From assembly GCA_965248265.1 (NCBI GenBank), contig CBDFJF010000002.1:2176001-2240000 (forward strand): a stretch of 64,000 nt of DNA, read 5' to 3'. The translations under genes and the position numbers were made by a program. The notes below the pieces were generated by a model that did not search any database, was not told the origin of the DNA, and saw nothing but the letters and a program-made list of their open reading frames with translations. Origin of the DNA: Candidatus Latescibacterota bacterium. GTDB taxonomy: Bacteria > Latescibacterota > UBA2968 > UBA8231. Shown piece after piece: positions 2 through 48,690 of this stretch (position 1 is its first letter; each line of letters starts with the position of its first letter).

Positions 2-2101
2 AACTCCTACACCTCCCTCGATCTGTTCAGCGGCAATTTTCTGGCCGGCAACCTGACGGCTGGCCAGAGCAGCGCCCCGGTGACGGCCATCGCCGTCATT
101 CTCAGCGACGACTCGCCGCATGACGGAGTCGGTGGCGCCGCCCTGTTCAGCCACGACGTCCGTATCACGACCAGGAACTTCGAGACGGACACCGAGCAGC
201 TATGGACCTTGGAAGAGGTGGTGCGCCCCGGCACCGAGTGGCCGGCCGTGTTCGGCGGGTTCGTGCGTCCCGGGTTCATCGCCGCAGATGGCGACGAGCG
301 CATCGTCCTCAACTACGACTTCACCGATCCCGCCTTCCAGCTCGTGCGCGAAGACGGTTCCGAGCTCGATGCCACCAACATCATCGAGGTCGAGTTCGAC
401 TATGTCCTGGCCAACGACTTCAAAGTTGAACTGTGGTCGAACCGTCAGACCGGTAAGAACGCGGTTCCGTCGCCACCTCTCACGAGCGACGTCATCGACG
501 TGGAGGCGCCGTCCTTGCTGCTCGTTCGCCGGGCCGAGGACAACGTCACGAATATCTCCAACATCCAGCGGCTCAAGTTCGAGTACGGTCTGCCCACGGC
601 CAACATGGTGGCCGGCTTCACGATCGAGGGCACGGATGTCTGGGGAATCGATTTCTACGGGGAATGGGACCGCAACTTCCGCTACTTCCAGTATCCCAAC
701 GCCGCCCTCTTCAACGCCAACGAAGCCCACGAGATCTCTCGTCGGGAGGCGGATGCGCGCTACTTCACGGTCTCCAAGCAGCAGTTTCCATTCTTCGCTT
801 ACGGCGAGGCCTACGGCATCGACGAAGACTACGGCACCAGCGCCTTCATCGTCGATGGAGACGGCAACACGCAGTACGACCGGCCCACCCTTTGGAGCTA
901 CGAGTTCGTGGACGACAACGATGATCAGGACGGCACTGCGGACTGGGTGCGCCGTGGTTCGGGCGGCGTAGATCGAAACGTATTCCCCGGTTGGGATGAA
1001 AACAACGACGCCATCTCCGATTTCAACCAGAACGACAACAGGTTTGTGCCCAACGAACTGCCAGACTACGAAGAGCCGTTTCTCCGCTACGACGTAGACC
1101 GGCCCGAGTTTCTGTTTGGAATCGACCTGAATAACAACGGCTGGATCGACCGCTTCGAAGACGACGAGCTGCCGGACTATCCCTACAAGGCGGACCGCGA
1201 GGGGTACAACGCCTTCGTCGGCATGCACCTGTCGCCGGAGACACGGCTGATGGTGGGTCGCACGGACGAACACATGCTGTCCGACGACCGGGAGAACACG
1301 ACCACCTACGCGCTGTTCACCTTCGACAAGAGCTATGCGGGAATCGGTCGGGTGCGCGTCTTCGACATGGTTCGACGGGCCTCTGACACGATCCCTGATG
1401 ATCGCCGGGAGATCTCGCCGTTTCGCAGTGCGCCGGCCCAGCCCATCTTAGAGGACTTTCTGCGGGCGCAGGACACCTGGATCAACACCGCCTGGCTGGG
1501 GCTCGAGTACATGGCGATTCCGAAGCTGAAGGTCGAGGGCGTGCTGAAGCACGAGTATTTCAACCAGACGCAGGATGAGCCGCGGGATCTGACAAGCCGA
1601 CGCATGGCTGGGGCACCGAGCCTGTTCGGCTTGGTGAACAAACTCGAATACAACATCAGCCTGGGGTCCCTGATGCTGCGGCCGCGGCTGAAGAGCGAGT
1701 ACCTGCGGCAGGATGCGTTCGTGCAGGAAGAGGACGACCACAAGCAGTGGACGGGTCTGGCCATGCTCCTGGCCCAATTCCCCGTCCTCACCGAAAGCTC
1801 GCTGACGGCGGGCATCGAGCTGGCCCAGTTCGCCGACAGAATGAAAGACGAAGACGAGCTGGTGGAGACGGGAAAGGTCGGCGCTACGGGGGATGAGCGC
1901 TCCGTCAACGTCGCCGTCCAGGTGGCCAACCGATCGTCCTATCTGGGCTATCGGTTGACGACCCACATCGGCCTGCGGCTGGCGCGGGTGCTTGTGGAGC
2001 AGGTGCAGGAGCGTGAAGCTGCTCCCGGAGAGTTCGAGAAGGTGAGCCAAGGCAGGACCGAAACCACCAGTTTCATCACCGTCTTCGCCGGGTTGGAATA
2101 G
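2..2101 (+). CDS. Large envelope protein, paralog A (5'-partial); putative outer-membrane beta-barrel with Asp-rich Ca-binding-like core
   Basis: Frame is open from position 2 (NSYTSLDLFSGNFLAG... aligns with the NNNGALDTWEGNPLKG of the next ORF). Motifs DDNDDQDG, VFPGWDENNDAISDFNQN, DLNNNGWID; ends TVFAGLE. Confidence 0.85.
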   Translation, partial: NSYTSLDLFSGNFLAGNLTAGQSSAPVTAIAVILSDDSPHDGVGGAALFSHDVRITTRNFETDTEQLWTLEEVVRPGTEWPAVFGGFVRPGFIAADGDERIVLNYDFTDPAFQLVREDGSELDATNIIEVEFDYVLANDFKVELWSNRQTGKNAVPSPPLTSDVIDVEAPSLLLVRRAEDNVTNISNIQRLKFEYGLPTANMVAGFTIEGTDVWGIDFYGEWDRNFRYFQYPNAALFNANEAHEISRREADARYFTVSKQQFPFFAYGEAYGIDEDYGTSAFIVDGDGNTQYDRPTLWSYEFVDDNDDQDGTADWVRRGSGGVDRNVFPGWDENNDAISDFNQNDNRFVPNELPDYEEPFLRYDVDRPEFLFGIDLNNNGWIDRFEDDELPDYPYKADREGYNAFVGMHLSPETRLMVGRTDEHMLSDDRENTTTYALFTFDKSYAGIGRVRVFDMVRRASDTIPDDRREISPFRSAPAQPILEDFLRAQDTWINTAWLGLEYMAIPKLKVEGVLKHEYFNQTQDEPRDLTSRRMAGAPSLFGLVNKLEYNISLGSLMLRPRLKSEYLRQDAFVQEEDDHKQWTGLAMLLAQFPVLTESSLTAGIELAQFADRMKDEDELVETGKVGATGDERSVNVAVQVANRSSYLGYRLTTHIGLRLARVLVEQVQEREAAPGEFEKVSQGRTETTSFITVFAGLE

Positions 2102-2102
2102 C

Positions 2103-5090
2103 ATGCCGCGACTCACACCCCCCCGACTCCCCGTTGCTCTGGCCGGCCTCGCCCTCTGGGCGAGCACCTCTGTCATGGCGCAGGACTACGGCAGTCGCCT
2201 CGGAACCCGGCTGGGCGAGGAGGTGTTCTACAGCACCTCCGGCGTCCCCATCTACACCCACGCCCTCGACCCGACCGTACACCGCTGGTACGTGCCTGCG
2301 ACGATGTTCGCCGAACTCGGCCGCAGCCAGTGGGAATACACGAACTTTGCCCGCCCTCGCGACCGCTACCGGCGCTACACCGATCGAGACCTAGCGGGTG
2401 CCTACTTCTACGATGTCTACGGGAATCTCACCACCAGGGGATGGCTCGTCTACGACTGGCGCCAGAGCCAGCCGCAGATCTCGGAAAGCTCGTCGATTAC
2501 CCAGGCGGGCGGCCGCTATGACACATGGTTCAACCGCCTGGTCATCAGCTCTGACCGCAAAGGCGAGTACGCTGTTTCCGTCCTCATCGGCGACGAGGTA
2601 TCGGCCCTGCTCACCCCCATGACCTTCCGCAAGGCCGGCTTCAACGGGGTCGTCACCAGTCTCGAGGCTGGCCCCTACCGGACTACAGGAGTGTTCTCCC
2701 GGATCAGCGATCCCTGGCTTGGGGTCGGGACCTCGACCACCCAGAACATGACCAATCTGATGGGCGGCAGAGTCGAAGTGGATGTCACCGACGCCCTCAC
2801 CTTGGGCTTCAATCTGGTCAACAGCCACAACAACAACGGCGCTCTCGACACATGGGAGGGGAATCCGCTCAAGGGCTACCTCGCGCCCGAGCAGCTCTCG
2901 TCGGCTATCTCCATGCTGGTCGTCAGGCTCTCCGATGACTCCCCCGAAGACGGCGGGGGCGCCGTTCTGGTGAGCGACGATATCGAAATCACTACGACGC
3001 TCATGCGGCGGGTGGCCGTGGGCGACACCTTCACCACCGTGCCCAGAGACACCGTCATCGTCGGCAGCAGCATCGGCTTCGAGCCTATCGCAGGACTGCA
3101 GTTCCTCACCGGGGAGGTGGGAATTGGGGAAGGCAAGCTGGTGGAGGGGTTCCGCACGGCCGATGGCTCTGACACCATCGTGCTGAACTACCTCCTCGAC
3201 GTGCCGCCCGTCGTAACCGGTGATGAGCACCGGGCTCAGCTGGAGCCGTTGACGCTGCGCTCGCTTCTGCAGACGCAGGTCGGGCTGGACAGCGATGAGG
3301 TGCAAGACGCCCTGCTGGCGATCAGGAATCTGCGGATGCGTCTCATCCTGGCCAACGACTACCGGGTGGAGGTCACCTCGGACAGGCAGACGGACAAGTC
3401 GGGCGTACCGCAGTTTCGCCCGGTTACACGGGCCGAGGGGAACATCAAGAATCGCCTCAACCAGCGCGAGATCGTGTTCGATTACGGCCTGCCTACGGCG
3501 AATACCATAATCGGTCTGACCGCCGAAGTTCGGGACTTCCACGGCATCGACCTCTACGGCGAGGTCAACGTCAACACCCAGTACCGGAAATACCCGGGAC
3601 TCGGCCGCGAGCGACACCGCGCTATCTCGGGGATTCGCGGCGACCGGAACGCCCTCGGCTGGATGGTCAACATGTCCTGGAGGGGTGATGGCCCGTTTTC
3701 GCTCTTCGCCGAGGGCTTCGGCATGGACGACGAATACACCACGAGCGTATTGCCTCAGGACAGGTCCGGGTTGCCCGACTACTCTCCGGACGCCACCAGC
3801 CTGCGCTACGAATGGGTCGATGACAACGACGACAACGACCGTCAGCCGGATTGGCACCGCGTTCGCGAGGGATCCTTCGTGCCCCGACGCGGATTCGCCG
3901 AGAGTTCGATCGATGGCCGGGGAGTCCCGGATCCGGATGTGTTTCCCGGCTACGACGAGAACCTCGATTTCATCTCCGACTTCAACCAGAACAGCACGCC
4001 GGAGCGCCCCAACTTCTTCCCCGATTACGACGAGCCGTTCCTGCGCTACAGCTCCGACCGGCCGGAATTCCTGTTCGGCATCGATCTGAACAACAACGGC
4101 TGGATCGAGCGTTTCGAAAATGATGACGAGCCGGACTACCCCTACAGGAGGGACCATTTCGGCTACAACCTCTACGGCAGAGCCGAGCTCGCCCGCAGCA
4201 AGCTCACCCTGGGGCAACTGCAACAGGATGAGGGGAAATCCCGGCGCCGGAATCACACGAGATATGGCATGTTCACCTACGAGGGCGACTGGCCGGCGCT
4301 GGGACGGCTGCGCGTGTTCGACATGCTCAAGAGCGCGAAGGACACGATCGCCGACGATCTGATCCAGTGGGTGATGGAGCCCGTCGAGGAGGGACGGCCC
4401 ACCGGTTCATCGGGCCAGATGGAGCCGATCGCAGACCCCCTGGCGGCGGAGGATACCTGGATCAACACCTTTTACACCGACTGGGAGTACGAGTCCCCGC
4501 TGAACTGGAAGACCTTTCACCGCTTCAAGTGGGAGACCTGGAAGCAGCGGGACGCGGATGTGCGGATTACCCTCGACGACGCCGGCGACACCCTGTCCGT
4601 GTTCGATCCCCTCGGCCCGGAAGGGCGCCTCGGGCGCGAGGATTCCGGCTTTTTCGGCTTCATCAACAAGGTCGAGTACGTCCACCGGTTGGGAAACTTC
4701 ACGCTGTCGCCGAGATTCAAGAGCGAGTTTCTCCGCCGGACCCCGTTCACCGTGACGAGAGAAAAGCAGCGCTCCTGGGATGGCATCGGCTTCTTCCTCG
4801 TCGAGTTCCCCATCCTCAAGAGGACTCGCATCAAAGCGGGTCTCGAGCAACGCTTCTTCTACAACCTGAAAGGGGACGAAGGAGATCTCGCGATGGGTGA
4901 CATATCGGGAGATTTCCGCGGCACGGCAGCGGCTATCCAGCTGACAAACGTGAGCGACTACCTCGGATACGCCCTGACGACCCAGGTCGGCTTCCGTATC
5001 GACCGCCGCTCCCTGGAGGTCATCGACGACGATCCGGAATCGACGACGGCTGGTCTGGGGTACATGACCGTCTTCGCCGGACTGCGCTAG
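2103..5090 (+). CDS. Large envelope protein, paralog B, with signal peptide; putative outer-membrane beta-barrel
   Basis: 995 aa; signal peptide ending ...SVMA|QD; colinear similarity to the upstream ORF; amphipathic strand-like C-terminal segments; ends TVFAGLR. ATG lies 1 nt after the upstream stop. Confidence 0.85.
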   Translation: MPRLTPPRLPVALAGLALWASTSVMAQDYGSRLGTRLGEEVFYSTSGVPIYTHALDPTVHRWYVPATMFAELGRSQWEYTNFARPRDRYRRYTDRDLAGAYFYDVYGNLTTRGWLVYDWRQSQPQISESSSITQAGGRYDTWFNRLVISSDRKGEYAVSVLIGDEVSALLTPMTFRKAGFNGVVTSLEAGPYRTTGVFSRISDPWLGVGTSTTQNMTNLMGGRVEVDVTDALTLGFNLVNSHNNNGALDTWEGNPLKGYLAPEQLSSAISMLVVRLSDDSPEDGGGAVLVSDDIEITTTLMRRVAVGDTFTTVPRDTVIVGSSIGFEPIAGLQFLTGEVGIGEGKLVEGFRTADGSDTIVLNYLLDVPPVVTGDEHRAQLEPLTLRSLLQTQVGLDSDEVQDALLAIRNLRMRLILANDYRVEVTSDRQTDKSGVPQFRPVTRAEGNIKNRLNQREIVFDYGLPTANTIIGLTAEVRDFHGIDLYGEVNVNTQYRKYPGLGRERHRAISGIRGDRNALGWMVNMSWRGDGPFSLFAEGFGMDDEYTTSVLPQDRSGLPDYSPDATSLRYEWVDDNDDNDRQPDWHRVREGSFVPRRGFAESSIDGRGVPDPDVFPGYDENLDFISDFNQNSTPERPNFFPDYDEPFLRYSSDRPEFLFGIDLNNNGWIERFENDDEPDYPYRRDHFGYNLYGRAELARSKLTLGQLQQDEGKSRRRNHTRYGMFTYEGDWPALGRLRVFDMLKSAKDTIADDLIQWVMEPVEEGRPTGSSGQMEPIADPLAAEDTWINTFYTDWEYESPLNWKTFHRFKWETWKQRDADVRITLDDAGDTLSVFDPLGPEGRLGREDSGFFGFINKVEYVHRLGNFTLSPRFKSEFLRRTPFTVTREKQRSWDGIGFFLVEFPILKRTRIKAGLEQRFFYNLKGDEGDLAMGDISGDFRGTAAAIQLTNVSDYLGYALTTQVGFRIDRRSLEVIDDDPESTTAGLGYMTVFAGLR

Positions 5091-5099
5091 CAGAGCGAC

Positions 5100-6989
5100 A
5101 TGCACCCGGCCGCGCTGCGTTGGACAATGATCGGCGCGGTCGTTTTGTCGAGCTGTACGGGCGGTGAGGAGGGACCCGCCGAGGGTCGGGCATTTTTCGT
5201 CGACGTCGCCGCAGAGAGCGGCATCGAGTTCGTCCACACCGCCGGCGGCCAGGGAGACTACTACCTCATCGAGACCATGGGTGCCGGGGGGGCGTTCTTC
5301 GACTACGACAGTGACGGGCTTCTCGACATCTATCTCGTGGAAGGATTCTCCATCGGTATCGGCACCGATTTCAGCCCCCTGAACCTCCTCTCGGAGACCT
5401 CTACCCGCTATCTCATCAGGCATCCCATGGAGTACCGCCGCCCTCCTCGTCTGGACGGGGAAGTCGACAGTCTCGCGTATCGGGTTCGTCAGAGCGCCGA
5501 GCCGTTCGTCAGAAACCGCCTCTATCGCAACAATGGGGAACGGGCAGAGGGAACATTCTCAGACAGGACCTCGGAGGCCAGAGTGGGAGATACGGGGTAC
5601 GGTATGGGGTGTGCAGTGGGAGACTACGATAACGACGGCGATGCGGATCTGTATGTCGTCAACTACGGACCGAACACGCTGTACCGGAATGAAGCAGACG
5701 GCAGTTTTGTCGACGTCACGGAGCACATGGGGGTCGGCGATCCGAGCTGGAGCGCGGGCGCGGCCTTCTTCGATTATGATAGCGACGGTCGGCTCGACCT
5801 CTACGTCGTCAACTACCTCGACTTCCACGTCGGCAATAACCTGATCTGCGGCGGCAACGAGGAGGCGCAGGAATCGCCGGCTGGCACCTTGCTGAGAATG
5901 CGCAAGGACCGCCGCTCGTACTGCAGCCCGAAAGGGTACAACGGCGCTGCTGATGTCCTCTACCACAACACCGGAAGTCGCTTCGAGAGCACGTTCGAGA
6001 ACGTGACGCGAGAAATGGGCATCTTCAGCCCGTACGGAAAGGGTCTCGGCGTCGTGACGTCCGATTTCGACGGGGACGGGGACACGGACGTCTACGTGGC
6101 TAACGACGGCGTGAGAAATTTTCTCTACCGGAACGAGGGCGGCGAGCAGTTCGCGGACATCGCAGTGGCGGCGGGAGCGGCGTACAACCGGGATGGTCGT
6201 GCGGAGGCGGGCATGGGCGTGGACTGGGGCGATTTCGATGGAGATGCCGATTTCGATCTCTTCGTCACCAATTACTCGAGACAGACCAACACACTCTATC
6301 GAAACGATGGTGCAGCCGTGTTCAACGACGTCACGGATGTCGTCCAGCTGTCAGAGAGCAGCCACAACCCCCTCGGCTTTGGGACGTTCTTCTTCGAGGC
6401 CGACAACGACGGCGATGTGGATCTGTTCGTCGCCAACGGCCACGTCCAGGACAAGGTTCATTTTTTCGCCGGAAACGAGGGCATCACGTATCCACAGCCG
6501 AACCAGCTTTTCGCCAACAGCGATGGTCGTGAATATGTGGAAGTGTCCAGTCAGAGCGGTCCCGGGCTGGAGCCTGTCCTCGTCTCCCGCGGGAGCGCCT
6601 TTGGAGATTACGACAACGACGGCGATCTCGACATTCTCGTGACCAACTGCGACGGCCCGGCACAGCTGCTGCGCAACGACTTGTCAGCGAAGAGGAACTG
6701 GCTCTCGGTTCGCCTGATCGGCAGAGACGTGAACCGAGATGCCGTTGGATCCAGAATCGCGGTCACCTGCGATGGCGCTACCCAGGTTCGGGAGGTGAAG
6801 ACGAGTGGCAGCTACGCCTCAGCCAGCGATATTCGGCAGCATTTCGGGCTCGGTGACTGCGGTGCGGTCCAGAGTCTGGAGATCATCTGGCACGACGGTT
6901 CGCTGCAACTGGTGGACGGGAAGGAGGTGTTGGTGAATCAGTTTCTGACGATCGAACAGGAAGATTCTCGCGGGGCCTCCCGTCAATAG
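5100..6989 (+). CDS. CRTAC1-family FG-GAP/VCBS repeat lipoprotein with C-terminal ASPIC/UnbV domain
   Basis: Lipobox LSSC; repeated DYDxDGxxDLYV motifs; C-terminal REVKTSGSYASASDIRQHFGLG...WHDG. Confidence 0.92.
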   Translation: MHPAALRWTMIGAVVLSSCTGGEEGPAEGRAFFVDVAAESGIEFVHTAGGQGDYYLIETMGAGGAFFDYDSDGLLDIYLVEGFSIGIGTDFSPLNLLSETSTRYLIRHPMEYRRPPRLDGEVDSLAYRVRQSAEPFVRNRLYRNNGERAEGTFSDRTSEARVGDTGYGMGCAVGDYDNDGDADLYVVNYGPNTLYRNEADGSFVDVTEHMGVGDPSWSAGAAFFDYDSDGRLDLYVVNYLDFHVGNNLICGGNEEAQESPAGTLLRMRKDRRSYCSPKGYNGAADVLYHNTGSRFESTFENVTREMGIFSPYGKGLGVVTSDFDGDGDTDVYVANDGVRNFLYRNEGGEQFADIAVAAGAAYNRDGRAEAGMGVDWGDFDGDADFDLFVTNYSRQTNTLYRNDGAAVFNDVTDVVQLSESSHNPLGFGTFFFEADNDGDVDLFVANGHVQDKVHFFAGNEGITYPQPNQLFANSDGREYVEVSSQSGPGLEPVLVSRGSAFGDYDNDGDLDILVTNCDGPAQLLRNDLSAKRNWLSVRLIGRDVNRDAVGSRIAVTCDGATQVREVKTSGSYASASDIRQHFGLGDCGAVQSLEIIWHDGSLQLVDGKEVLVNQFLTIEQEDSRGASRQ

Positions 6990-9013
6990 GCCAGTGAGAC
7001 GACCTTGAGAGCGGTGTTCGTCCCCTCGTCGGTAGCGACGTCGAGGCGCAGGATGTATACCCCCGGTACGGCGAGTGTGCCGGCGCCGTCTGTGCCGTCC
7101 CAGGTTGCGCTCTGACGTCCGCTCGTCGAAGGCCCGTCAAAGACGACGGCCACCTTTCTGCCCGCCAGGTCGTACAGACTTAGTGTGACGGGTACGGCAC
7201 CGGACAAGTTGACGAGGTCGAAGGAGATCTCGATGGCGTCGTTGACACGGTCGCCGTTGGGGGTGGCCACCGGAGTCGACAGCTGGAAGGCTTGTATCGA
7301 GCTCTGGCCGAGATCGGCCAGTCCCACTGAGAGGGTGTTGCTGTCCACCAATTCGTCGGCGTCGCCGGCGGCGATGCGCTGACGCGGCTCCCCAAGTCGG
7401 GAGCTGTCGAAGACCCTGCCCCGAAAGACGGTTCCGAACTTGAACACCTCGGTCTGGAACACGATTTCGATCAACTCGTTCGTGCGCTGCAGGTCGATGT
7501 GGGGGAGATTGACGACGAAGCTGGTCGGACCCGGCTCCCAACCCCACTCCGACTCATCCAGGTACACCTCGTTTATCCGCACCGAATCCACGCTGGTGAC
7601 CTCGGTCGCCGTCTCGATCTCGATGCTGTCGAACCCGAGGTCCCTGCGGAGCAGCTGCGGCAGCACCAGGTACCGGAACTGGGTCAGGGTTCGCGCCGCC
7701 ACTACGGGTGGAGCGATCTCCGCCACCACCTGGCTGGCGATCGGCGGGCTCGATACGCGGAACTCGAGATAGTCGAGGCGCCGTCTCGAGCGGGTGTTCG
7801 AGGACGTGAGGTCGACGTCGAACTGCACGTATTGGCGTGGTCCATCCGCCGCCAGCGGCGCTTCGCGGGCATCGAAATCGAGCGGGGTCGTCCAGAACTG
7901 CCAGTTCTTGCTGTCCGGCGCGATGCCTGCCCGTTCACCGGCCTCGAGTCTCGCGTAGCTGGCGCGGGTCAGGGGTTTGCCGTCGGTGTCGAGGCCCGAG
8001 CGCTCCTCTCCTCTGAAGGTGTAGCGCGAGTATTTGTTGGGATCCGGGGTGTTGCCGCTGCGGGTGATGAGGTCCACCGTGGCGTCGGCCTCGCGCACCC
8101 CGCTCCACACGAGATCACCCAGGGTGGAGGGCTGTCCCAGATCGAGGATGTTCGAGCGGTAGCTCGCCCGCGGTACGTACCCATCTCCGTAGATCTCGAA
8201 CTCGGCGATTTCCCAGTCTCCTGTCAGGGCGATCAGGAAGATATTCTGAGTCGGGAAGCTGCTCACTTCCAGATCGAGGGTGGATATCCGGTTCTCGGTC
8301 GAGGAGAACACGATCCCCTCTCTCTCCCAGTCGACGAAGTCGGTCTCGTTCCGCGCGTATTGTAGGCTTCTGCGGGCTGTACCCTCAGGGGGTCCTATCG
8401 GAAGACCCAGACCTCGCAGGCCGTCCTTGCGTTCATCGCCGTCGTTGACCGCAATGGTGATCTCCTGCACGAAGCGCTGGTGCGCGTATCTCGGTGTGGG
8501 ATACATCTTGATGCGGGTAATGGGAAGGGGACCGCCGAGATCGATCGCGAGAATCTTGTACTGGCCATACGAGAACCCCGAAGAGCCGCCGTTGAACGCC
8601 GTCGTCGGGGCCTCGTCGATCATCAAATCGAGACCTGGTTCGTCACTGGAGGAGAAGCCGTCCGTCGACTTGATGGAACCGCCCCTGGCCCTGACGAAGG
8701 GAGTCAGATTGACGTTGGGGTCCAGCCTCTCGGGGGCTATGAAATCCGGGGCGAGTTCGACGAGACGACTGCTGCCGAAGAGCGCGTCGTCCGTCCCCGT
8801 CCACGGCAGCTGGACGAATCTGGAGGCGTCCCCGACCTCCGGTGCCGGCAGCTCGTCCCAGTTCAACCGCATGATCTCCAGCGGTCCGTCGATATCCGGC
8901 GCAGGGAGGCTCTCGCCACCGATTCTGTAGATGGTGACCGCGCCGCTATCCGATATCGACGACATGGCGAGTGCTAAGGCGAGTAGCCTGAACTGCAGTC
9001 GAGGCTTATCCAT
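6983..9013 (-). CDS. Secreted protein with discoidin(F5/8)-like segment and C-terminal FlgD Ig-like domain
   Basis: Signal peptide; IDLGG...ITRIKMYP and WEIAEFEIYG; C-terminal TPNGDRVND...YDLAGRKV...WDGTD...PGVYILRL...SLAY. Confidence 0.88.
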   Translation of the reverse strand: MDKPRLQFRLLALALAMSSISDSGAVTIYRIGGESLPAPDIDGPLEIMRLNWDELPAPEVGDASRFVQLPWTGTDDALFGSSRLVELAPDFIAPERLDPNVNLTPFVRARGGSIKSTDGFSSSDEPGLDLMIDEAPTTAFNGGSSGFSYGQYKILAIDLGGPLPITRIKMYPTPRYAHQRFVQEITIAVNDGDERKDGLRGLGLPIGPPEGTARRSLQYARNETDFVDWEREGIVFSSTENRISTLDLEVSSFPTQNIFLIALTGDWEIAEFEIYGDGYVPRASYRSNILDLGQPSTLGDLVWSGVREADATVDLITRSGNTPDPNKYSRYTFRGEERSGLDTDGKPLTRASYARLEAGERAGIAPDSKNWQFWTTPLDFDAREAPLAADGPRQYVQFDVDLTSSNTRSRRRLDYLEFRVSSPPIASQVVAEIAPPVVAARTLTQFRYLVLPQLLRRDLGFDSIEIETATEVTSVDSVRINEVYLDESEWGWEPGPTSFVVNLPHIDLQRTNELIEIVFQTEVFKFGTVFRGRVFDSSRLGEPRQRIAAGDADELVDSNTLSVGLADLGQSSIQAFQLSTPVATPNGDRVNDAIEISFDLVNLSGAVPVTLSLYDLAGRKVAVVFDGPSTSGRQSATWDGTDGAGTLAVPGVYILRLDVATDEGTNTALKVVSLAY

Positions 9014-9048
9014 GAGAAAAGGGGGAGAATCCAGCCGGATTCTCCCCC
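9014..9048 (-). terminator. Intrinsic terminator-like hairpin downstream of 9086-10000
   Basis: Perfect 12-bp stem GGGGGAGAATCC/GGATTCTCCCCC with a 4-nt loop (9021-9048), followed by TTTTCTC on the minus strand. Confidence 0.75.
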
Positions 9049-9085
9049 TCCCCGTCCTATGTGATGGGTAAAGTAAGGCGACTCG

Positions 9086-10000
9086 CTACTTCCTGAAGGA
9101 CGCCTTGATGTTCGCCCAGCTGTCCTCTTCGACGGCCGTCGGGTCGATGATGTCCGTGTCTATTGGCAGCAGGAGATAGTCAGACAGGAAGTCGGCATTG
9201 CAGCAGGCCTGGCCGGGGACGCCCAGATTCCAGCGCGCATTATTTCTGTCCTCGCCTTCATCGGTGCCGTCAGTGTCGTCCACGCTCACGTTCAGGCCGA
9301 TGATCTCGCCTTCCATCATCGGGTGCTCGACGCCGGCGTTGGGATCATCATGGTTGTAGTCGTCAAACACCGTGAACATGAACTCGCCACGGTAATTAAA
9401 CTCCTCACTGTTTCCCGGCGTACCCTCGTATTCGTAGACCCCGTCCCCCCACGGCAAGTCATCGTGCCAGTCCGACGCGGACATCCAGGCCCAGAGCCAC
9501 GTTTCCTTTCTCAAGCCGTCGTCGAAATAGACCTGGTAGATCTGGGCGTGGCGGTTCCGGTTCCGTAGGTTTTCCTCATCCGTGCCACCTTCGATGTTCC
9601 AGAAGGTGCCGCCCGAATGGTCGGCGTCGATGGCAGGCGAGATATTGTCCCATTGCGTCCAGTCGTTGTCGAACCGCTCGTAGGCCCAGTGGAGCTTGCT
9701 CGAGCCCTGCACGAAGCTCGGTATGAAGCGGAACGAAAGGTCGGATGCGTCGAGGTCTGCCGCCTTCGTTTCATTTCCGTCGAACATGAACGAAGAGTTC
9801 ACATTGTAGTTCTCGTGCGTAAACCAGAATTCCTCCGGGACCCTGTCCCAGTCGGACAGGTCTGCATCACGCACCGGCACTTGGTTCGCCGGCCACTGCC
9901 AGATTATGCCCCGATAACCTTCCGGAGCATGCCCAACCACAGGGGCGCTGAGGGCGCAGATCAGAGCACAGACACCCAGGCCTGCTACGATCTTCTTCAT
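9086..10000 (-). CDS. Secreted acidic protein, possible CBM9/DOMON-like fold, with C-terminal PTAVExxSWxxIK tail
   Basis: MKK signal peptide; RBS AAGGAGG; PVRDADLSDW and IIGLNVSVDDTD resemble CBM9-like domains; tail PTAVEEDSWANIKASFRK. Confidence 0.8.
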   Translation of the reverse strand: MKKIVAGLGVCALICALSAPVVGHAPEGYRGIIWQWPANQVPVRDADLSDWDRVPEEFWFTHENYNVNSSFMFDGNETKAADLDASDLSFRFIPSFVQGSSKLHWAYERFDNDWTQWDNISPAIDADHSGGTFWNIEGGTDEENLRNRNRHAQIYQVYFDDGLRKETWLWAWMSASDWHDDLPWGDGVYEYEGTPGNSEEFNYRGEFMFTVFDDYNHDDPNAGVEHPMMEGEIIGLNVSVDDTDGTDEGEDRNNARWNLGVPGQACCNADFLSDYLLLPIDTDIIDPTAVEEDSWANIKASFRK

Positions 10001-10102
10001 GAGAAGCCTCCTTGTAGGGAAGGAACGAAGCTCGGCACGTCTTTCAAAAGTGCACCGAGTCTTGAATAAAGAGCAATGTAGATTGCTGCACCGCTAGTCA
10101 TT

Positions 10103-10182
10103 AGTGTGGCCAAGTGTGGCTAAACATTGGTTGAAACAATGTAATAAATAGTTTGGTTGAAACAATATAATAAGATAGTTTG
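10103..10182. promoter_or_regulatory. AT-rich divergent promoter region with tandem direct repeats
   Basis: TTGGTTGAAACAAT(G/A)TAATAA at 10127 and 10153 (26-bp period) plus AGTGTGGC twice; lies between divergent genes. Confidence 0.6.
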
Positions 10183-10289
10183 TAACTACCTACCGAAAAG
10201 TTGTGCGTGAAAAATCGCGGCCTGCTCAACTGGGCCAAATAACCCAAATTGCACGAACCAAACCGAGGAGAGCCTGTAAGAGGTCCCCC

Positions 10290-12905
10290 ATGAGGTGGTT
10301 CGGATACAACATGCTGGTCGTTTCGACTCTCCTGTGCGCCGTTTCCGGCGCCCAGGCCCAGAAGGGTCACAGGATCAGAGCGAACGACGTCGTGATCGAG
10401 GGAAGACGTCACTTCGAGAACTGGGTGTCGGCCGCCGCCACCGTCGAGGTCGGCGTGGATGGCGTCCGTCCGCGGCACCTGCGAAGGCACACGAACGCCG
10501 TCCTCGAAATCGTGGAGGCCTTGCGCCAGCGGCCACCGAAGCACCTGAGGAACACGCCGCCGGAGCAGATCGAGCTGATCGACGCGGTGCAGGCCGGCTC
10601 GAACCGGGAGGATGTGGTCAACGTCTTCGACGGTGACATGAAAACCTACTGGGAGCCCGAGCCCCCGTCGTCAGACGAGGTCAATCTGGCCAGCGAGTGG
10701 TGGTTCACGGTGGATCTGGGACGGGTCGTGTTCGCCAACCGGATCGTCCTGCGCTTCGTCCATCCCAGGCAGGGAGATCCCTTTCTCCTGTTCGACGTGC
10801 TCACCTCGGATGGCCAGAAGCCGCCCTCCGCGATCGCCGGCGAGAACATCGAGTTCCTGCCGGTGATCGAGACAATCGAGCCGAACAGGACCCGGCGGCG
10901 CTTCGAAGTGGATCTGTCCTACGCCGGCGAGGACGCGCGAGAGACCGTCATCAGGTTCGTCCAGGTCGTCGTCCGGGGCAGCAATCTGGACCGCGGTACT
11001 GAGGTGGGCGAACAGGAGTACGGTCTGCTGGATGCCGGGGAACAGGGAGTGGTGGAGTATACCAAGCGCCTCAGCGACGCGAGGGAGTCGGCAGTGCCCG
11101 AGCAGGTCTACTGGGAGCTGGAGCCCGAGCGACGGGGCAGCATCCGCTACTTCCGCCGCGAACGCCCCCGGCTTGCAGAGCTCGAAGTGTGGGGAGATGG
11201 CGACGAGATCCTGGGCGGCACGCTGTTCCGCGGTGGGGCGATCGAGGGAGAGAAATTGGAAAATGTCGGCACCCTCCTCGACGACGATATGCTCACGAGC
11301 CTCTTCGTGGATACCGATGGTCCCGTCGGGAGTCAGGATGAGGTCGTGGTCGATCTGGGTTCATCCTACTGGATCGACAGTCAGCGAATGGTCGTGTCTT
11401 TTCGGCCGAACGAGCATGCTTCCAGTTTCTTCAAGTACGAGCTGGATTTCTCAGACGGTCGCCGGCATGCAGACGGCAGCCCCGTGTGGACAGTGGTGAA
11501 GCGCATCGAGCGGGAGCATATCGGCCATTTCTTAGGCCGCGTCCCGGCGAGCAGCATGATCGTCGATCGGCACGATTTCGATCCCGTCAAAGCCCGTTTC
11601 TTCCGGCTCCTGTGGGACGTCGAGCCGCGTAAGATTGGGAACCACGTCTATCTGGCGGAGATGCAGCTGTTCGGCTCTGGCTACCAACCCGAAGTCAGGC
11701 TGGAGTCTGACAACATCGAGATGCCGGGCAGTCAGAATCTCACCGAGATATCGTGGGAAGCCGACACGCCTCCCGGTACGCAGGTGGTGCTGCAGACGAA
11801 GACGGGAAACACCGTCCTCTCTGATACGCTCTATTACACCGATGACGGTGAGCTGCTGGGCAGAGGGGAGGCTGGGTCGAAGAAGTACTACAGCCGGGCT
11901 TGGAGGAGCAGCCAGGGCGAGAAGAAGCTCCTTCTCGAGGATGGACCGGATTGGTCGCCTCTGAGCGAGCGCTACGAGGATTCCTCCGGGAGCAAGATCA
12001 CCTCGCCGGCGCCTCGCAGAATGGTCAAGGTCCGTGCGACGCTGCTCTCCGACGACCCTCAAACCGCCGCCACGCTGCGCTCGATCCGGTTGAGGTTTGC
12101 CGATCCCATAGCGCGTCGGCTGCTGGGCGAAGTCATGCCGGCCAGAGTCGAGGCCCTGGGAGTCGAGCGCTCCTTTTCGCTGTATGTGAAGGTGGACACA
12201 CTGGAGCAGCGGTTCGACGAGCTCCTGGTGCGGGCTCCCGCGGGCATGGTGCTGGGAGAGGGAGATGATGTCGAGGAGCAGGTACACTTGTTTTCCGGTC
12301 TGGCCGCGGCAGACGAGCTGCAGCAAGCCGGCGATCTGCAGGTCCTGGGCTATGGCGACAGTCTCCACGTAAAATTTCCCCTCCTAGAATCCAGCGTAGA
12401 GGTCTTGCGGCTGGATTTTCCGGCGACGCTGTATTCCAGCGGCGGCCGTCTGGAGGCTTCCCTGCGGAACTCGGACTCGGAATTCTGGCAGCAAGTCGAT
12501 GTGGGCGATGCCACCAGCGAGATCGCCAGCAACACGCTGATAGTGGTCGCTCAGCCCGAGAGCAAGCAACTGTTCCGGGAACTGAATATCTCGCCGCGGG
12601 TCGCCTCTCCCAACGGCGATGGCATCAACGACGAGATCGTCGCCGAGTTTACCGTCGTCCTCTTAGGAGTGAGCGAGGCCGTTGAGATGGAGATCTACGA
12701 TCTGAGCGGTCGTCTCGTTCGTCGCTTGACAGCGCAGCGCGAGGCAAGCGCTGGCCGCTATCGGATCGACTGGGATGGCCTCGACGAGTCGGGCAAGCTG
12801 GCCCCGCCGGGGTTGTACGCGCTGCGGCTGAGCCTCGACGCCGACACCGAGGGCGCCGGGATCGATGAAAAGCACGCGGTGCGTACGATCGCACTGGCGT
12901 ATTGA
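10290..12905 (+). CDS. Secreted protein with discoidin-like domains and C-terminal FlgD Ig-like domain
   Basis: Likely ATG at 10290 (AAGAGG upstream, signal peptide follows); FTVDLG, LAELEVWG, LAEMQLFG; SPNGDGIND...YDLSGRLVR...WDGLD...PGLY...ALAY. Paralog of 6983-9013. Confidence 0.88.
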   Translation: MRWFGYNMLVVSTLLCAVSGAQAQKGHRIRANDVVIEGRRHFENWVSAAATVEVGVDGVRPRHLRRHTNAVLEIVEALRQRPPKHLRNTPPEQIELIDAVQAGSNREDVVNVFDGDMKTYWEPEPPSSDEVNLASEWWFTVDLGRVVFANRIVLRFVHPRQGDPFLLFDVLTSDGQKPPSAIAGENIEFLPVIETIEPNRTRRRFEVDLSYAGEDARETVIRFVQVVVRGSNLDRGTEVGEQEYGLLDAGEQGVVEYTKRLSDARESAVPEQVYWELEPERRGSIRYFRRERPRLAELEVWGDGDEILGGTLFRGGAIEGEKLENVGTLLDDDMLTSLFVDTDGPVGSQDEVVVDLGSSYWIDSQRMVVSFRPNEHASSFFKYELDFSDGRRHADGSPVWTVVKRIEREHIGHFLGRVPASSMIVDRHDFDPVKARFFRLLWDVEPRKIGNHVYLAEMQLFGSGYQPEVRLESDNIEMPGSQNLTEISWEADTPPGTQVVLQTKTGNTVLSDTLYYTDDGELLGRGEAGSKKYYSRAWRSSQGEKKLLLEDGPDWSPLSERYEDSSGSKITSPAPRRMVKVRATLLSDDPQTAATLRSIRLRFADPIARRLLGEVMPARVEALGVERSFSLYVKVDTLEQRFDELLVRAPAGMVLGEGDDVEEQVHLFSGLAAADELQQAGDLQVLGYGDSLHVKFPLLESSVEVLRLDFPATLYSSGGRLEASLRNSDSEFWQQVDVGDATSEIASNTLIVVAQPESKQLFRELNISPRVASPNGDGINDEIVAEFTVVLLGVSEAVEMEIYDLSGRLVRRLTAQREASAGRYRIDWDGLDESGKLAPPGLYALRLSLDADTEGAGIDEKHAVRTIALAY

Positions 12906-29003: not shown

Positions 29004-29123
29004 TGATTCTGCTTTCGGCTTCAAGTCGCAGAGGACATGCTGAGCGCAGGGATGTCACAAGCGCCGACTGGCCTTGAGAGGCCGTTGCGATGGCCTCTTC
29101 CCTTTCCGAAGATTCTGTCTATT

Positions 29124-29891
29124 ATGGACGACACTATGACAGAAGAAGAGAGATTCCTCTTCGACCTCGAGGGTTACCTGGTGGTGCCCGGTGTGCTCTC
29201 ATCGCAGGAAGTGACACAGCTGAACGAGCTCGCCGACGAAGCCTGGCCCGGAGAGCACGACGAAACAGGTTTGCGTCGCACGTCGAACGTGTCGCAGTGG
29301 GGACCCCGCTTCCGCGACCTCATCGACCATACCAACATCGTGCCGTATCTGATCGAGCTTCTGGGTCCCAAGTTCCGCATCGATCACGACTACTGCATGT
29401 TCATGCGCCGCGGAACCTCTCGCAGCCGCCTGCATGGAGGTCCCTCACCGCATAGCTACGAAGGCGACCACTGGTATCGCTTTCACCCCGACGGCACGAT
29501 CCGCAATGGTCTCACCGTCTTCACATACAATCTGAGCGACTGCGGTCCGGAGGATGGTGGCTTCGCCTGCGTACCAGGCAGCCACAAAACCAATCTGAGG
29601 TCGGGCATTCCGCAGGACGTGATCCGCTTCGAACGGGATGCTCACTATGTGCGGCAGCCTCCCGTCAAGGCGGGAGACGTCATCATCTTCACCGAAGCGT
29701 TGGTGCATGGCACGCTGGCCTGGGATGCCGACCACGAGCGCCGGGCTTTGCTGTACAAATACAGCCCCGGGCACTCATCCTGGAGCAGCACCTACTACGA
29801 TCCCGATGACTACCCGGGCGCCACGGAGCAGCAGATTCGCATCATGGCGGCGCCCTCAGTGGGGTCCCGGCCCGATTCAGTGCAGGTATGA
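29124..29891 (+). CDS. Phytanoyl-CoA dioxygenase (PhyH) family protein
   Basis: FLFDLEGYLV, LHGG, DGGFACVPGSHK, AGDVIIFTEALVHGT, RRALLYKY. Confidence 0.92.
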   Translation: MDDTMTEEERFLFDLEGYLVVPGVLSSQEVTQLNELADEAWPGEHDETGLRRTSNVSQWGPRFRDLIDHTNIVPYLIELLGPKFRIDHDYCMFMRRGTSRSRLHGGPSPHSYEGDHWYRFHPDGTIRNGLTVFTYNLSDCGPEDGGFACVPGSHKTNLRSGIPQDVIRFERDAHYVRQPPVKAGDVIIFTEALVHGTLAWDADHERRALLYKYSPGHSSWSSTYYDPDDYPGATEQQIRIMAAPSVGSRPDSVQV

Positions 29892-35479: not shown

Positions 35480-35714
35480 ATAGGTCAAATAAGGAGTATT
35501 ATCGTTAGTCTATTTCGGTGGTGTTGTGTTGTCGAGGGGTATTCGAGGTGGTCTGACGGCCGAACGAGCAGGTGTCGGTCCCGAACTGGCGGGTGTGAGG
35601 GTCGATTGGTTGAGCAGGGGCGGCCGATTGGCCGATGTCGGTAAATGCAAGGGCGGATTCGGGCGCAGGGCTTGCTCAGCGGACGCCAACGCCCGACTAT
35701 CACCGCCCCTGTAT
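35480..35714 (-). mobile_element. 235-bp IS91-family oriIS end without transposase (copy A2)
   Basis: Near-identical to 28653-28887 (one mismatch seen by eye); no target-site duplication. Confidence 0.88.
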
Positions 35715-35985
35715 GATTGGCACGGGAAGCTCCACGACGTCGTCTACGGCGCCTGCTCGTTCCCGCCCTCGTGCCGGGTCGATGACCCGCAGACACAGGA
35801 AGGCGCCATTCTCGCGCACGCCGTTGTTCTCAGGGGAGCAACAAATCGGCAGCTACGAGCGCTTCTGGGACGGGCGCGACGACGCCCGCAGGCTGGCGCC
35901 TCCGGGTGTATACCTGTATCAACTGACCACGAAGACCCACGAGCGCCGCTTCGTCGAGACCGGAGAGGTGCGCCTGGTTTACTGA
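35715..35985 (+). pseudogene. 3' remnant of an FlgD-domain protein gene
   Basis: LFSGEQQIGSYERFWDGRDD...PPGVYLYQL...RLVY-stop with no N-terminus. Confidence 0.75.
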
Positions 35986-35986
35986 C

Positions 35987-37972
35987 CTACCAGACGTGGA
36001 CGCGGTGGCCCTCGTCGGGGAACCAGATGCCGTCGACGATGCCGGACAGTGCTACGGCCGCAGCGTAACCCAGGCCTAATCCGTAGAACAGGGGCTTACC
36101 TCTCTGGTAAGCCTGCACCCCTCCGTAGCGCAGCAGGGCGGCCTTGATGACCCACACGAGGAGCAGGCTGAACCAGTAGTTTGCCGGGCCCGCGGCGTTC
36201 TGGAAGGCGAGACCGACTGGATGCAGCGGGAACCAGTGAAAGCGGCTGCGCAGATAGGCGAGAGCTCCGGCCTCTGACATGCCCGCCACCCACACGCCCC
36301 ACTTGCCGATGTCGAACACCCTGGGATGCTGCACCAGGTTGGCAGTCTGTGGGTAGACGTTGAAAGCGTGGATCAGGTGGACGGCGCCCCCCTGGTCGTA
36401 GGCGACTTCGATGCTGGCCCAGGCCGCCACCAGGCAGCCGATCGTGAAGGCGATGAGGACGACGGCGCAGACGCGGCCGCGTTGCCGGCGCAGCGAGAAT
36501 ATGCGCAGGTGGTGGGGGATCGCGGGCCAGGCCGGAAGGCGGATGTTGCCGAAGAAGGCCTGGCTCGTGAACAGCTTGAACGCCACCACGTTCTTCGTCG
36601 ATAGGATGCTGGAGCCGACCAGTTCGGTGATGAAGGAGCCGCCCTTCATGTTGGCCCAGCTCGGCATCAGGTAGGGGAAGCCCGTGGCGGCGATCAGCTT
36701 GACCGTGACGAAAAACGTCATCGCCATGAGCAGGAACGTGCACACGGCTAGGGGCACCGTCGCCCCGAGGCTGACGCCGAAGCCGATGACGTAAACGGCT
36801 GACAACGTCATTCCGATGAAAGCAAGCCGATACATTCCGACCTGTCCGGCATCGCCGGTGCCGCCCCTGACCTGTCGCCAGACCTGGCCGAGATGGCGTC
36901 GCGCCAGCCATACCGACCAGATGGCGATGAGGACGATGGCGCCGAAACTCTCCAGATGCAGGATGTCGGAACTGATCAAGCGCTGGCCGGAAGCGCCGAC
37001 GCTGACCCCGAATTGATCCATGGCCCCCAACTTGAAGACGGAGAGCAGGTAGAAGAGGATGATGCTGCCCAGGATGTCGAGCGGGCACAGGTAGGTCACC
37101 GCCAGCACAAGGGGCAGGATGCGGATGGTCAACGCCGGAAAGGGCTGCGGCAAGGGGATGGTGTAGCGCTCGCGGAAGACCTCCACCATGGGCGCGCCCG
37201 GGCTGAAATAGGTGGCGATGTTGTAGAGCAACGGCAGGAAGACGATGCCGAAGCCGGCCCAGAACAGACTGGAGCGGAACAGCTCCGGCATGCGCCGGGG
37301 ACCGTCGAAGCCGCGCGTCAGTTCGAGGGGCATCTGAGCCAGTGGAAAGGTGAGCTTCTCGTTGTCCACCCACTGGCGGTGGAAGAGGATCATCAGACAG
37401 AGTCCGAACACGACCATGGCCAGCGAAGCTCCGCCCCACTGCGCGATGATGCCGATCCACACGTCCCACGGAATTGAAGCGCCATCCGGCAGGCCCAGCC
37501 ACAGGGGATCGATGACGCGTGGCTCGGGCCCGGGAAAGGCGTTCCACGGCATGAAGGGGACGATGAGGGTGTCCCACTGGTTCTCCGGCGTCGGCATGAA
37601 GGACGGCGCGCCCAGTATGGCGACCCAGTAGTCGCTCCACCCCCACATCGGCAGCGCCCCGACGATCCAGGTCATCGAGAACACGGTGAGCAGCTCGCCG
37701 CGACTCAGGGCCACGCGCGGCCACACCCGTTTGAGGGCCACGTTGAAGAACAGCCACAGCACGAAGGGGATGACGGCCACCATCGGGTACTGCGACTGCA
37801 CGAGGTTGATCCCCATGAACAGGATCAGGTAATAGAACCAGACTGCGATGGTAACGGCCCCGACGAGGACTCCGCGCCAGGTGATCGTCAGCTTGTCGTC
37901 TTCGGCCGGTAAGTCAGACCCCCGACTCGCGTGGGGCTGGGTTACGTCAGCTGCTTGAGCGGGGTCGGGCAA
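35987..37972 (-). CDS. DUF6785/DUF6784-type polytopic membrane protein (putative transporter)
   Basis: Many TM helices; LSRGELL, TPENQW, RQWVDNEKLTFPL, WFPLHPVG, LLRYGG. Confidence 0.8.
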   Translation of the reverse strand: MPDPAQAADVTQPHASRGSDLPAEDDKLTITWRGVLVGAVTIAVWFYYLILFMGINLVQSQYPMVAVIPFVLWLFFNVALKRVWPRVALSRGELLTVFSMTWIVGALPMWGWSDYWVAILGAPSFMPTPENQWDTLIVPFMPWNAFPGPEPRVIDPLWLGLPDGASIPWDVWIGIIAQWGGASLAMVVFGLCLMILFHRQWVDNEKLTFPLAQMPLELTRGFDGPRRMPELFRSSLFWAGFGIVFLPLLYNIATYFSPGAPMVEVFRERYTIPLPQPFPALTIRILPLVLAVTYLCPLDILGSIILFYLLSVFKLGAMDQFGVSVGASGQRLISSDILHLESFGAIVLIAIWSVWLARRHLGQVWRQVRGGTGDAGQVGMYRLAFIGMTLSAVYVIGFGVSLGATVPLAVCTFLLMAMTFFVTVKLIAATGFPYLMPSWANMKGGSFITELVGSSILSTKNVVAFKLFTSQAFFGNIRLPAWPAIPHHLRIFSLRRQRGRVCAVVLIAFTIGCLVAAWASIEVAYDQGGAVHLIHAFNVYPQTANLVQHPRVFDIGKWGVWVAGMSEAGALAYLRSRFHWFPLHPVGLAFQNAAGPANYWFSLLLVWVIKAALLRYGGVQAYQRGKPLFYGLGLGYAAAVALSGIVDGIWFPDEGHRVHVW

Positions 37973-45375: not shown

Positions 45376-45619
45376 CGGGTACCGGTCAGGAGATGCTTTG
45401 CCTGAGGGGTTTGAAGCGGATAGTATGATTCCTGGCAGGGGCTTTGTCGAGTGTGATTGGCGCGGTGGCAGATGGAGTTGAGCAGCTCGCTGATTGACTG
45501 TTTACAGGTGTTTGTTATCAAAACATCGATTGAAGTATGTTGTGATGTATGCGAACCACCTTGGCCATCGACGGTCTGTTCCGGCAGGGCACCCGCCGAG
45601 TAGAAGCAGGAGGAATCAG

Positions 45620-48530: not shown

Positions 48531-48546
48531 GGGGCTCAGGTCCTCC

Positions 48547-48690
48547 TCACATGATGAATTCGTGCACGTCGTCGAGCCAGGCGAATCCCTCCGCATTGTC
48601 CAACTTGTAGGCTCCACCCATCAAAAAGATCCGATCTTCGGTGGCGGCTGCCGGCATCCAGGCTTTCTTGACCAGCCCCCCTTGCGCGGT
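48547..48690 (-). pseudogene. 3' remnant of a Kelch-repeat-like protein
   Basis: ...AAATEDRIFLMGGAY...WLDDVHEF-stop abutting the RBS of the next gene; no credible N-terminus. Confidence 0.5.

Follow-up and report, generated by a model that had tools for sequence, protein, structure and literature searches.

The DNA studied here is a stretch of 64,000 nucleotides (the window; C2:2176001-2240000) from a Candidatus Latescibacterota genome (G000) of 7.32 Mb in two contigs, and the subject of this report is the envelope gene cluster at its beginning. An ORF check placed six adjacent open reading frames (ORFs), g1 to g6, in positions 2-12905 (Table 1), at the coordinates first given in a sequence-only reading of the same DNA. 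That reading had also ascribed export signals to the five proteins that are complete in the window, and signal peptides were recognized in all five by eye. The complete g1 encodes 954 amino acids (aa; L011:15237-18101 in the coordinates of the upstream stretch), with its first 764 nt lying upstream of the window. The likely start of g6 is the ATG at position 10290, ahead of the signal peptide MRWFGYNMLVVSTLLCAVSGAQA.

The boundaries originally drawn at 2 and 12905 proved too narrow. The 16 kb upstream of the window encode a SurA-like parvulin chaperone and a DUF6785/DUF6784 membrane protein (both on the minus strand), followed on the plus strand by a third paralogue of the g1/g2 family (u_965) and a third protein with the C-terminal domain (CTD) described below (u_771). 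There is a 4-nt overlap between u_965 and u_771, the genes u_771, g1, g2 and g3 are spaced by 1-9 nt, and a gap of 72 nt separates g4 from g5, which precedes it on the minus strand; this is the canonical order of g5 and the g4-type (c4) gene. The full copy of the locus extends over approximately 22.6 kb (C2:2166321-2188902), of which about 10 kb precede the window. Positions 2-12905 are the right-hand two thirds of one copy of a lineage-restricted envelope module that has been duplicated many times in the Latescibacterota; the copy in the window is rearranged and carries three genes of the g1/g2 family, which we refer to as barrels.

Table 1. Coordinates of the module genes, their neighbours and the PorU copies of the genome (window positions, unless contig C1 or C2 or the upstream stretch L011 is named).
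Feature	Position	Strand	Description
g1	2..2101	+	barrel-family paralogue A, 3' 699 codons; 5' end cut by window edge
g2	2103..5090	+	barrel-family paralogue B, 995 aa
g3	5100..6989	+	FG-GAP/UnbV (ASPIC) protein, probable lipoprotein, accessory neighbour
g4	6983..9013	-	c4-class cargo protein, 676 aa, signal peptide and Tyr-tail CTD
Tyr-tail CTD of g4	6986..7261	-	last 92 aa, ending VVSLAY; alignment A4
g5	9086..10000	-	304 aa, signal peptide, divergent CBM9_1-like, conserved C-terminal tail
C-terminal tail of g5, PTAVEEDSWANIKASFRK	9089..9142	-	alignment A3
g6	10203..12905	+	c6-class cargo protein, 900 aa from GTG start, discoidin-like N-terminal region and Tyr-tail CTD
Tyr-tail CTD of g6	12627..12902	+	ending TIALAY; alignment A4
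Short ORF, 123 aa	35614..35985	+	ends in Tyr-tail CTD (..VRLVY), adjoins DUF6785 gene
DUF6785 gene in window	35987-37972	-	
DUF6785 gene in window	46614-48617	-	
DUF6785 gene upstream of window	L011:8048-9991	-	
Full PorU paralogue	C2:2871983-2875108		
Full PorU paralogue	C2:1023220-1026390		
Full PorU paralogue	C1:1899128-1902307		
Partial PorU copy	C2:1517398-1519542		

Comparison of the proteins with one another revealed two sets of paralogues. The products of g1 and g2, previously described as a barrel-like pair, are 36% identical (E 2e-123), and u_965 is 65.5% identical to g1. The products of g4 and g6 show paralogy (26% identity, E 6e-26) in the C-terminal ~430 aa, both contain a C-terminal FlgD_ig domain (30.2 bits for the whole of g4, with CHU_C at 19.6, and 42.7 bits for the whole of g6) and both end in LAY; u_771 (FlgD_ig 33.7 bits, CHU_C 31.6 bits) is paralogous to both. 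The three proteins represent the secreted classes c4 (g4), c6 (g6) and c7 (u_771), which share the C-terminal region. The sequence-only reading had taken g4 and g6 for paralogous discoidin and FlgD proteins ending in LAY. Their paralogy, the FlgD_ig domain and the LAY ending stood, while the discoidin match was marginal in g6 (F5_F8_type_C, PF00754, 28.4 bits where the cut-off is 28.2, and no stretch significant by itself) and g4 gave none. Among relatives, F5_F8_type_C was matched in all eight c6 proteins (above the cut-off in five) and weakly in one of eight c4 proteins.

Whether these families belong together had been made to depend on their co-localisation in other genomes. We scanned one genome per species, which gave 641 confirmed barrel places, and counted the neighbours within ±10 kb of the barrel in the best 80 related loci, mostly titled Latescibacterota. 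Genes of the c4 type occurred in 73 of the 80, SurA-like and c7-like genes in 63 each, g5-like genes in 62 and c6-like genes in 59, and at one locus (L064) c7, barrel, g5, c4, SurA-like and c6 genes form a single same-strand block of six with gaps of 0-70 nt. The families thus recur in 59-73 of 80 loci, a synteny that rules out their chance adjacency. Within the source genome, tblastn detected 18 barrel-family places at 12 loci, and a gene with a Tyr-tail CTD lies within 10 kb at 10 of the 12. FG-GAP/UnbV (18 of 80) and DUF6785 genes (15 of 80) were less common neighbours, and g3, at first counted as a core part, is therefore better regarded as accessory. The core of the module, as computed directly from gene content, paralogy and synteny, consists of one to three orphan barrel paralogues, the secreted proteins c7, c4 and c6 with their Tyr-tail CTDs, the CBM9-like protein and the SurA-like chaperone.

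The CTDs of the module form a subclass of their own. Their consensus (alignment A4) reads PNGDGxND...DLSGRxVR...WDGxD...VPPGxY...VxVAY and ends in a hydrophobic residue followed by Ala or Val and the terminal Tyr, and they match nearly the whole of the CHU_C model. A purpose-built CTD profile identified 120 ORFs in the genome with a CTD at their end. Of the 26 situated no more than 10 kb from a barrel, 24 end in Tyr ([VLI][AV]Y-type); of the 94 elsewhere in the genome, 9 do so and 69 have a terminal Lys or Arg, as is usual (...LLK or ...LLR). The association between the Tyr end and the barrel is strong (Fisher p ~1e-15), with the qualification that paralogues are not independent. Several of the nine outlying Tyr-ended CTDs are located a little more than 10 kb from a barrel or belong to groups of module-type genes that lack one. 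Of the 178 CTD ORFs at the 80 related loci, 174 have a terminal Tyr.

The terminal residue is not the sole distinguishing feature. When a profile of the Tyr-tail CTDs was applied to this genome, the median score was 83 bits for Tyr-tail CTDs (n=35) and 37 bits for the others (n=50). The 30 best loci for this profile in four complete genomes of two barrel-less sister families included 28 C-terminal CTDs, none of them Tyr-ended, with a best score of 48.6 bits. The subclass is nearly confined to barrel neighbourhoods, a distribution that fits the suggestion that barrels may dock CTD-bearing partners. Scanned alone, the CTDs scored 35.6 (u_771), 27.4 (g6) and 23.2 bits (g4) with CHU_C (PF13585, cut-off 27), and 45.4 (g6) and 32.9 bits (g4) with FlgD_ig; CHU_C scores in 15 c7 and c4 relatives ranged from 23.3 to 42.7 bits, above the cut-off in nine. 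PF18962 matched none of the three Tyr-tail CTDs, compared with three of four K/R-tail CTDs of the same genome. Judged by these profiles, the Tyr-tail CTDs appear nearer to type B among the signals of type IX secretion systems (T9SS) and are clean members of neither type A nor type B.

A further Tyr-tail CTD, without a barrel nearby, was noticed in the short ORF at 35614-35985. It is probably the remnant of a module cargo gene, and as such a scar outside positions 2-12905.

The genome encodes the central parts of an ordinary T9SS. SprA was matched twice (296.9 and 276.6 bits, cut-off 200) in one frame of 2090 aa, and three PorU proteins scored 626-655 bits (cut-off 420); about 47 further, short PorU matches correspond to CTDs. 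A PorV-like gene (155.6 bits, under the cut-off of 250) lies 220 nt from a PorU gene. The genome search for T9SS parts, which the sequence-only reading had proposed, was thus successful for SprA, PorU and a PorV-like protein; the motor and ring components GldK/L/M/N were not identified by it. The single GldM match was a methyl-accepting chemotaxis protein, and the GldK-like matches were partial, of the FGE-sulfatase type and far under the cut-off. The Tyr-tail proteins, with Sec signal peptides discerned by eye and a T9SS core encoded in the genome, can be counted as T9SS cargo. One of the three PorU paralogues might be dedicated to Tyr-tail CTDs.

The presence of T9SS markers was also computed across the phylum. 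SprA was found in 149 of 151 sampled genomes and the barrel family in 90. Barrels occur in all 66 sampled genomes of the window's own family, and two sister families, both with SprA, have none (0 of 31 and 0 of 22). All 90 barrel-positive genomes carry T9SS markers (SprA in 88, PorU above the cut-off in the other two). The latter two, G015 and G038, had been considered as cases of barrels without a T9SS (no SprA at E<=1e-10) and were rejected as such, given PorU above the cut-off and many CTDs. The locus therefore looks not like a new secretion system but like an accessory of a known one.

The barrel family itself is an orphan. Neither g1 nor g2 gave a Pfam match, checked down to E<=10, and g1 gave no NCBIfam match. 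A search yielded 752 homologues; the 120 listed are all unnamed or 'hypothetical' and without a Pfam domain, and homologues originate from metagenome-assembled genomes labelled Latescibacteria or Gemmatimonadetes. A total of 958 cluster representatives match the family profile. Comparison with PDB sequences gave no match (best E 0.026, to an unrelated protein), and profile comparison by hhalign was negative against the genome's own TonB-dependent receptors (TBDRs; probability 0.1 for 12 of them), its DUF5916 protein (probability 0.4-3.6), SprA, DUF6029 and PorV-like proteins.

Several features nevertheless suggest that the proteins of ~900-1000 aa are probably outer-membrane proteins, and we infer a barrel fold from the same features. 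The signal peptide of g2 lacks a lipobox (cleavage, by eye, at VMA|QDYG), an aromatic residue occurs within the last six positions in 269 of 331 family members, three tandem barrel copies of G015 end in Phe, and a SurA-like chaperone is co-encoded. The family alignment shows a conserved last strand, ...F-I-T-V-[FY]-A-G-L-x, which reads MTVFAGLR in g2. The Asp-rich region of g2 includes the loop DLNNNGWIERFE, whose pattern DxNxNGxIxxxE we take to be of the EF-hand type. The near-invariant Asp/Asn block at residues ~570-690 of g2 contains the motifs VDDNDDxD, FPGxDENxDFISDFNQN, PDYxEPFLRY and GIDLNNNGWIxRFENDDxPDYPY, and probably forms calcium sites.

Some members of the family have diverged considerably. 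A subfamily with 24-27% identity is encoded at C2:1328174-1337177, C2:575896-578898 and C2:2730322-2733375, and the paralogues at C2:1333986-1337177, C2:575896-578898 and C2:2730322-2733375 end in ..GYGQNVLY or ..GYAQSVLY. Two of these three are the only proteins of the genome with SlpA_C matches (E 0.07 and 0.2). Among 22 distant relatives of the barrel, six gave sub-threshold SlpA_C matches (16.7-30.2 bits, cut-off 35), which share one model region and in every case involve the Asp-rich segment. In the distant lineage G015, a c7-like Tyr-tail protein of 1123 aa, a 344-aa ORF ending in ..LGYRW and three tandem barrel genes, one of them with a TAA stop in its frame, follow one another in this order (G015:C14:58781-72009; L128/L129).

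The remaining proteins of the module and its neighbours could be assigned with varying precision. As proposed earlier, g3 encodes an FG-GAP/UnbV protein (FG-GAP_3, PF13517, 145.6 bits; UnbV_ASPIC, PF07593, 59.8 bits) with a lipobox, VLSSC, recognized by inspection at its N-terminus; about 30 paralogues are scattered over the genome. For g5, described as a CBM9-like protein with a conserved tail, the tail was confirmed, and the CBM9 assignment is supported at the level of the family. The protein matched nothing in Pfam (E<=10, CBM9 included) or NCBIfam, CBM9_1 (PF06452, cut-off 23.4) was reached by none of 11 sequences (g5 and 10 close relatives), and it was passed by five of nine distant members (25.4-32.0 bits; family profile E 1e-41 to 1e-56). 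The protein has 85 homologues, all unnamed or 'hypothetical'. The motifs DGDLSEWD at the N-terminus and TAVExxSWGxIKASF at the C-terminus are conserved in the family, and 12 ORFs of the genome, among them the g5 paralogues detected by tblastn, end in this tail motif. A metagenomic relative, P0337, is a CBM9_1 g5-like protein fused to a type A-like FlgD_ig/Por_Secre_tail CTD; in some lineages the small protein would therefore itself be T9SS cargo, instead of carrying the SWGxIKASF tail.

The genome further contains 8 SurA-like and 33 DUF6785 paralogues (tblastn). The DUF6785/DUF6784 proteins (~650 aa, with a hydrophobic N-terminus) are often encoded beside glycoside hydrolases, lyases or modules, and may provide an inner-membrane uptake step. 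Downstream of the module, the window encodes glycoside hydrolases (GH106, GH127, GH2), a BNR_4 protein and two heparinase II/III-like proteins, as well as enolase-superfamily, DHDPS-like, GFO/IDH/MocA and sugar-acid enzymes and two more DUF6785 proteins. Within 40 kb there are also four genes for PhyH-type dioxygenases (29037-29891, 45494-46558, L011:1668-2642 and L011:5369-6124), interspersed with the glycan-degrading genes, which is unusual company for them.

We propose that the Tyr-tail proteins travel as T9SS cargo and have a cognate partner in the outer membrane, in the manner of type B CTDs and PorP/SprF, and that they form lectin complexes resembling those of polysaccharide utilization loci (PULs); we give this proposal an even chance of being correct. 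All parts of the module would be carried to the periplasm by Sec, where the SurA-like protein would aid assembly of the large outer-membrane protein. The ordinary T9SS, that is SprA and its partners, encoded elsewhere, would translocate the Tyr-tail proteins, which would not be passed to PorV/PorU for lipid attachment and would instead be received and held by the outer-membrane protein of the module. It is this binding of the CTD to the barrel, together with a glycan ligand, that we infer. The CBM9-like protein would join through its conserved tail, and the resulting surface complex would display lectin-like domains (discoidin, CBM9-like), with different copies of the module capturing different glycans for neighbouring catabolic genes. 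A glycan context is plausible because of the discoidin matches in c6, the CBM9_1 matches in relatives of g5 and the glycoside hydrolase and heparinase-like genes downstream, and the PUL-like multiplication of the module in a catabolic neighbourhood suggests glycan capture. The module may also be a phylum-specific counterpart of PULs, in which the barrel serves both as shuttle or anchor for a third class of T9SS signal and as uptake channel for the glycans caught by the tethered partners, with about 10 copies per genome, each tuned to a different polymer; we consider this wider version somewhat unlikely.

A number of observations weigh against the proposed pairing. On the side of the secretion system, the failure of the genome search to identify GldK/L/M/N is one, and another is that PorP/SprF (TIGR03519) was unmatched genome-wide, a search in which the control genomes also gave no match. 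Moreover, the barrels have approximately three times as many residues as the TIGR03519 model has positions (292), and the ratio of one to three barrels to three cargo proteins departs from the PorP/SprF precedent. Both NCBIfam models of the known signals scored under their cut-offs: the type A model TIGR04183 gave 22.4 (g4) and 16.7 bits (g6), below the cut-off of 23, and the type B model TIGR04131 gave 14.8 bits (cut-off 35). Since the CTDs fit neither type cleanly, handling of the Tyr-tail proteins by PorV/PorU is a possible alternative fate. The Pfam scan gave no discoidin match in g4.

One objection concerns the barrel fold itself: an aromatic residue at the very C-terminus is present in just 36 of 331 family members. 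The density of amphipathic strands per 100 aa, a crude measure that does not separate the classes, was 1.76 for the family, 1.72 for TBDRs and up to 1.94 for enzymes. Mean-field direct coupling analysis of the C-terminal 305 columns (307 sequences, effective number 151) revealed no strand ladders, was dominated by gap artefacts and gave 43 antiparallel and 49 parallel neighbour pairs, and hence no signal. For the homologue P0027, the ESM Atlas returned its own family and a sub-threshold lead (0.89) to the TBDR-like DUF6029; the DUF6029 match of this genome falls on a gene other than the barrel.

The sequence-only reading had considered a system analogous to SusCD, and the barrel could indeed be chiefly a SusC-like channel for glycan uptake, with the Tyr-tail and CBM9-like proteins, delivered to the surface by the T9SS, as its binding partners and anchoring as a secondary role. 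This would agree with a module multiplied like PULs (12 barrel loci), with a barrel of ~950 aa, near the size of a SusC-type receptor, with the lectin-like domains and with the glycoside hydrolases, lyases and 33 DUF6785 membrane-protein paralogues scattered nearby; that the genome yields just one weak SusD match, at C2:2550060 beside a true TBDR and away from the locus, also speaks in its favour. The analogy does not extend to membership, however, as none of the genome's 30 Plug matches falls in a module barrel and no SusD is encoded at the locus. The negative hhalign comparison with the genome's TBDRs points the same way, no TonB-box-like motif was recognised in the barrels, and an importer would leave the separate CTD subclass of the cargo unexplained; we think it unlikely. 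The modules might instead build alternative protein coats or adhesins, with the barrel as anchor of Ig-like and lectin ectodomains, like the SlpA-anchored S-layer of Deinococcus. Their role would then be to attach the cell to hosts, particles or prey, or to vary its surface, rather than to capture nutrients. Adhesion proteins frequently contain FG-GAP and discoidin domains, many paralogous sets per genome would suit surface variation, and the SlpA_C matches in six of 22 distant relatives and in two paralogues of the own genome would be explained. These matches are all under the cut-off and on the Asp-rich segment, though, and may mirror the composition of calcium sites alone; no SLH domain was found in the locus proteins by the Pfam scan, and the genomic context is catabolic. 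We regard a coat or adhesin as unlikely to about the same degree as an importer.

Much less can be said for the idea that the barrel itself acts as translocon and exports the Tyr-tail proteins by a separate, T9SS-analogous route. The link between CTD subclass and barrel family and the dedicated chaperone in the operon would be expected of such a route, and SprA is reported to bind a peptidyl-prolyl isomerase. Yet T9SS markers accompany the barrel in 90 of 90 sampled genomes, the CTDs share the FlgD_ig/CHU_C fold family with ordinary T9SS signals, the barrel has no similarity to SprA and the module encodes no energising component. With SprA, three PorU and a PorV-like protein in the genome, the separate export system envisaged by the sequence-only reading is very unlikely.

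Sediments, seawater and sponges commonly harbour Latescibacterota, which are uncultured. The full-text literature search found no paper tying type IX secretion to Latescibacteria or Latescibacterota; it likewise found none joining T9SS, Gemmatimonadota and C-terminal domain, none mentioning DUF6785 and nothing describing the module. In the passages found in a 2015 genomic survey of the phylum, porins and TonB-dependent import alone are mentioned, and not the module. With about ten copies per genome, a PUL-like module would be one of the principal ways in which this phylum handles polymers. To our knowledge, sorting of cargo fate after SprA is known for PorV (type A) and PorP/SprF (type B) alone, and in Bacteroidota alone. 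If our proposal is true, the Tyr-tail CTD and the barrel would be a third signal-partner pair, in another phylum. The pairing is directly testable because it combines a simple sequence mark, the C-terminal Tyr, with an orphan partner family of about 950 cluster representatives in public data.

Among the known systems, the beta-barrel SlpA of Deinococcus/Thermus (PF21620) resembles the barrel as a large envelope protein to which distant barrel members weakly match in one model region, and differs in that all matches are under the cut-off and there is neither an SLH domain nor a PDB sequence match. The outer-membrane proteins of the CBM9_1-DUF5916 type combine a CBM9_1-like domain with a large putative beta-barrel, which in the module are encoded by separate adjacent genes; the barrel profile is dissimilar to the DUF5916 protein of this genome, whose sole true DUF5916 gene lies elsewhere. 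With SusC/SusD PULs the module shares a repeated cassette, located among glycan-degrading genes, of a large putative outer-membrane protein and surface proteins of carbohydrate-binding type. Unlike these PULs, it has no Plug/TBDR signature and no SusD, its binding proteins carry T9SS-type CTDs and not lipoprotein signals, and it includes a SurA-like gene.

The closest comparison is with type B secretion (SprB-SprF of Flavobacterium johnsoniae, PG1035-PorP of Porphyromonas gingivalis). According to PMC12618676 and PMC9143113, type B cargo proteins, which have a CHU_C-type CTD, bypass PorV, depend on a cognate PorP/SprF-like protein encoded adjacently and stay bound to it. The module differs in that its partner has no PorP/SprF match and about three times the TIGR03519 length, that its CTDs end in Tyr and score far under the cut-off of TIGR04131, that three cargo classes occur per one to three barrels, that the operon adds a CBM9-like protein and a SurA-like chaperone, and that it belongs to Latescibacterota, not Bacteroidota. 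As in the type B systems described in those papers, the module CTD matches CHU_C and begins with PNGDGxND, the cargo gene is linked to the gene of a (here putative) outer-membrane protein, the CTD class stands apart from type A in the same genome, and several cognate sets occur per genome. What is new here is the orphan family and the subclass of CTD, and the proposed sorting of T9SS cargo through a cognate outer-membrane partner is of a kind already known.

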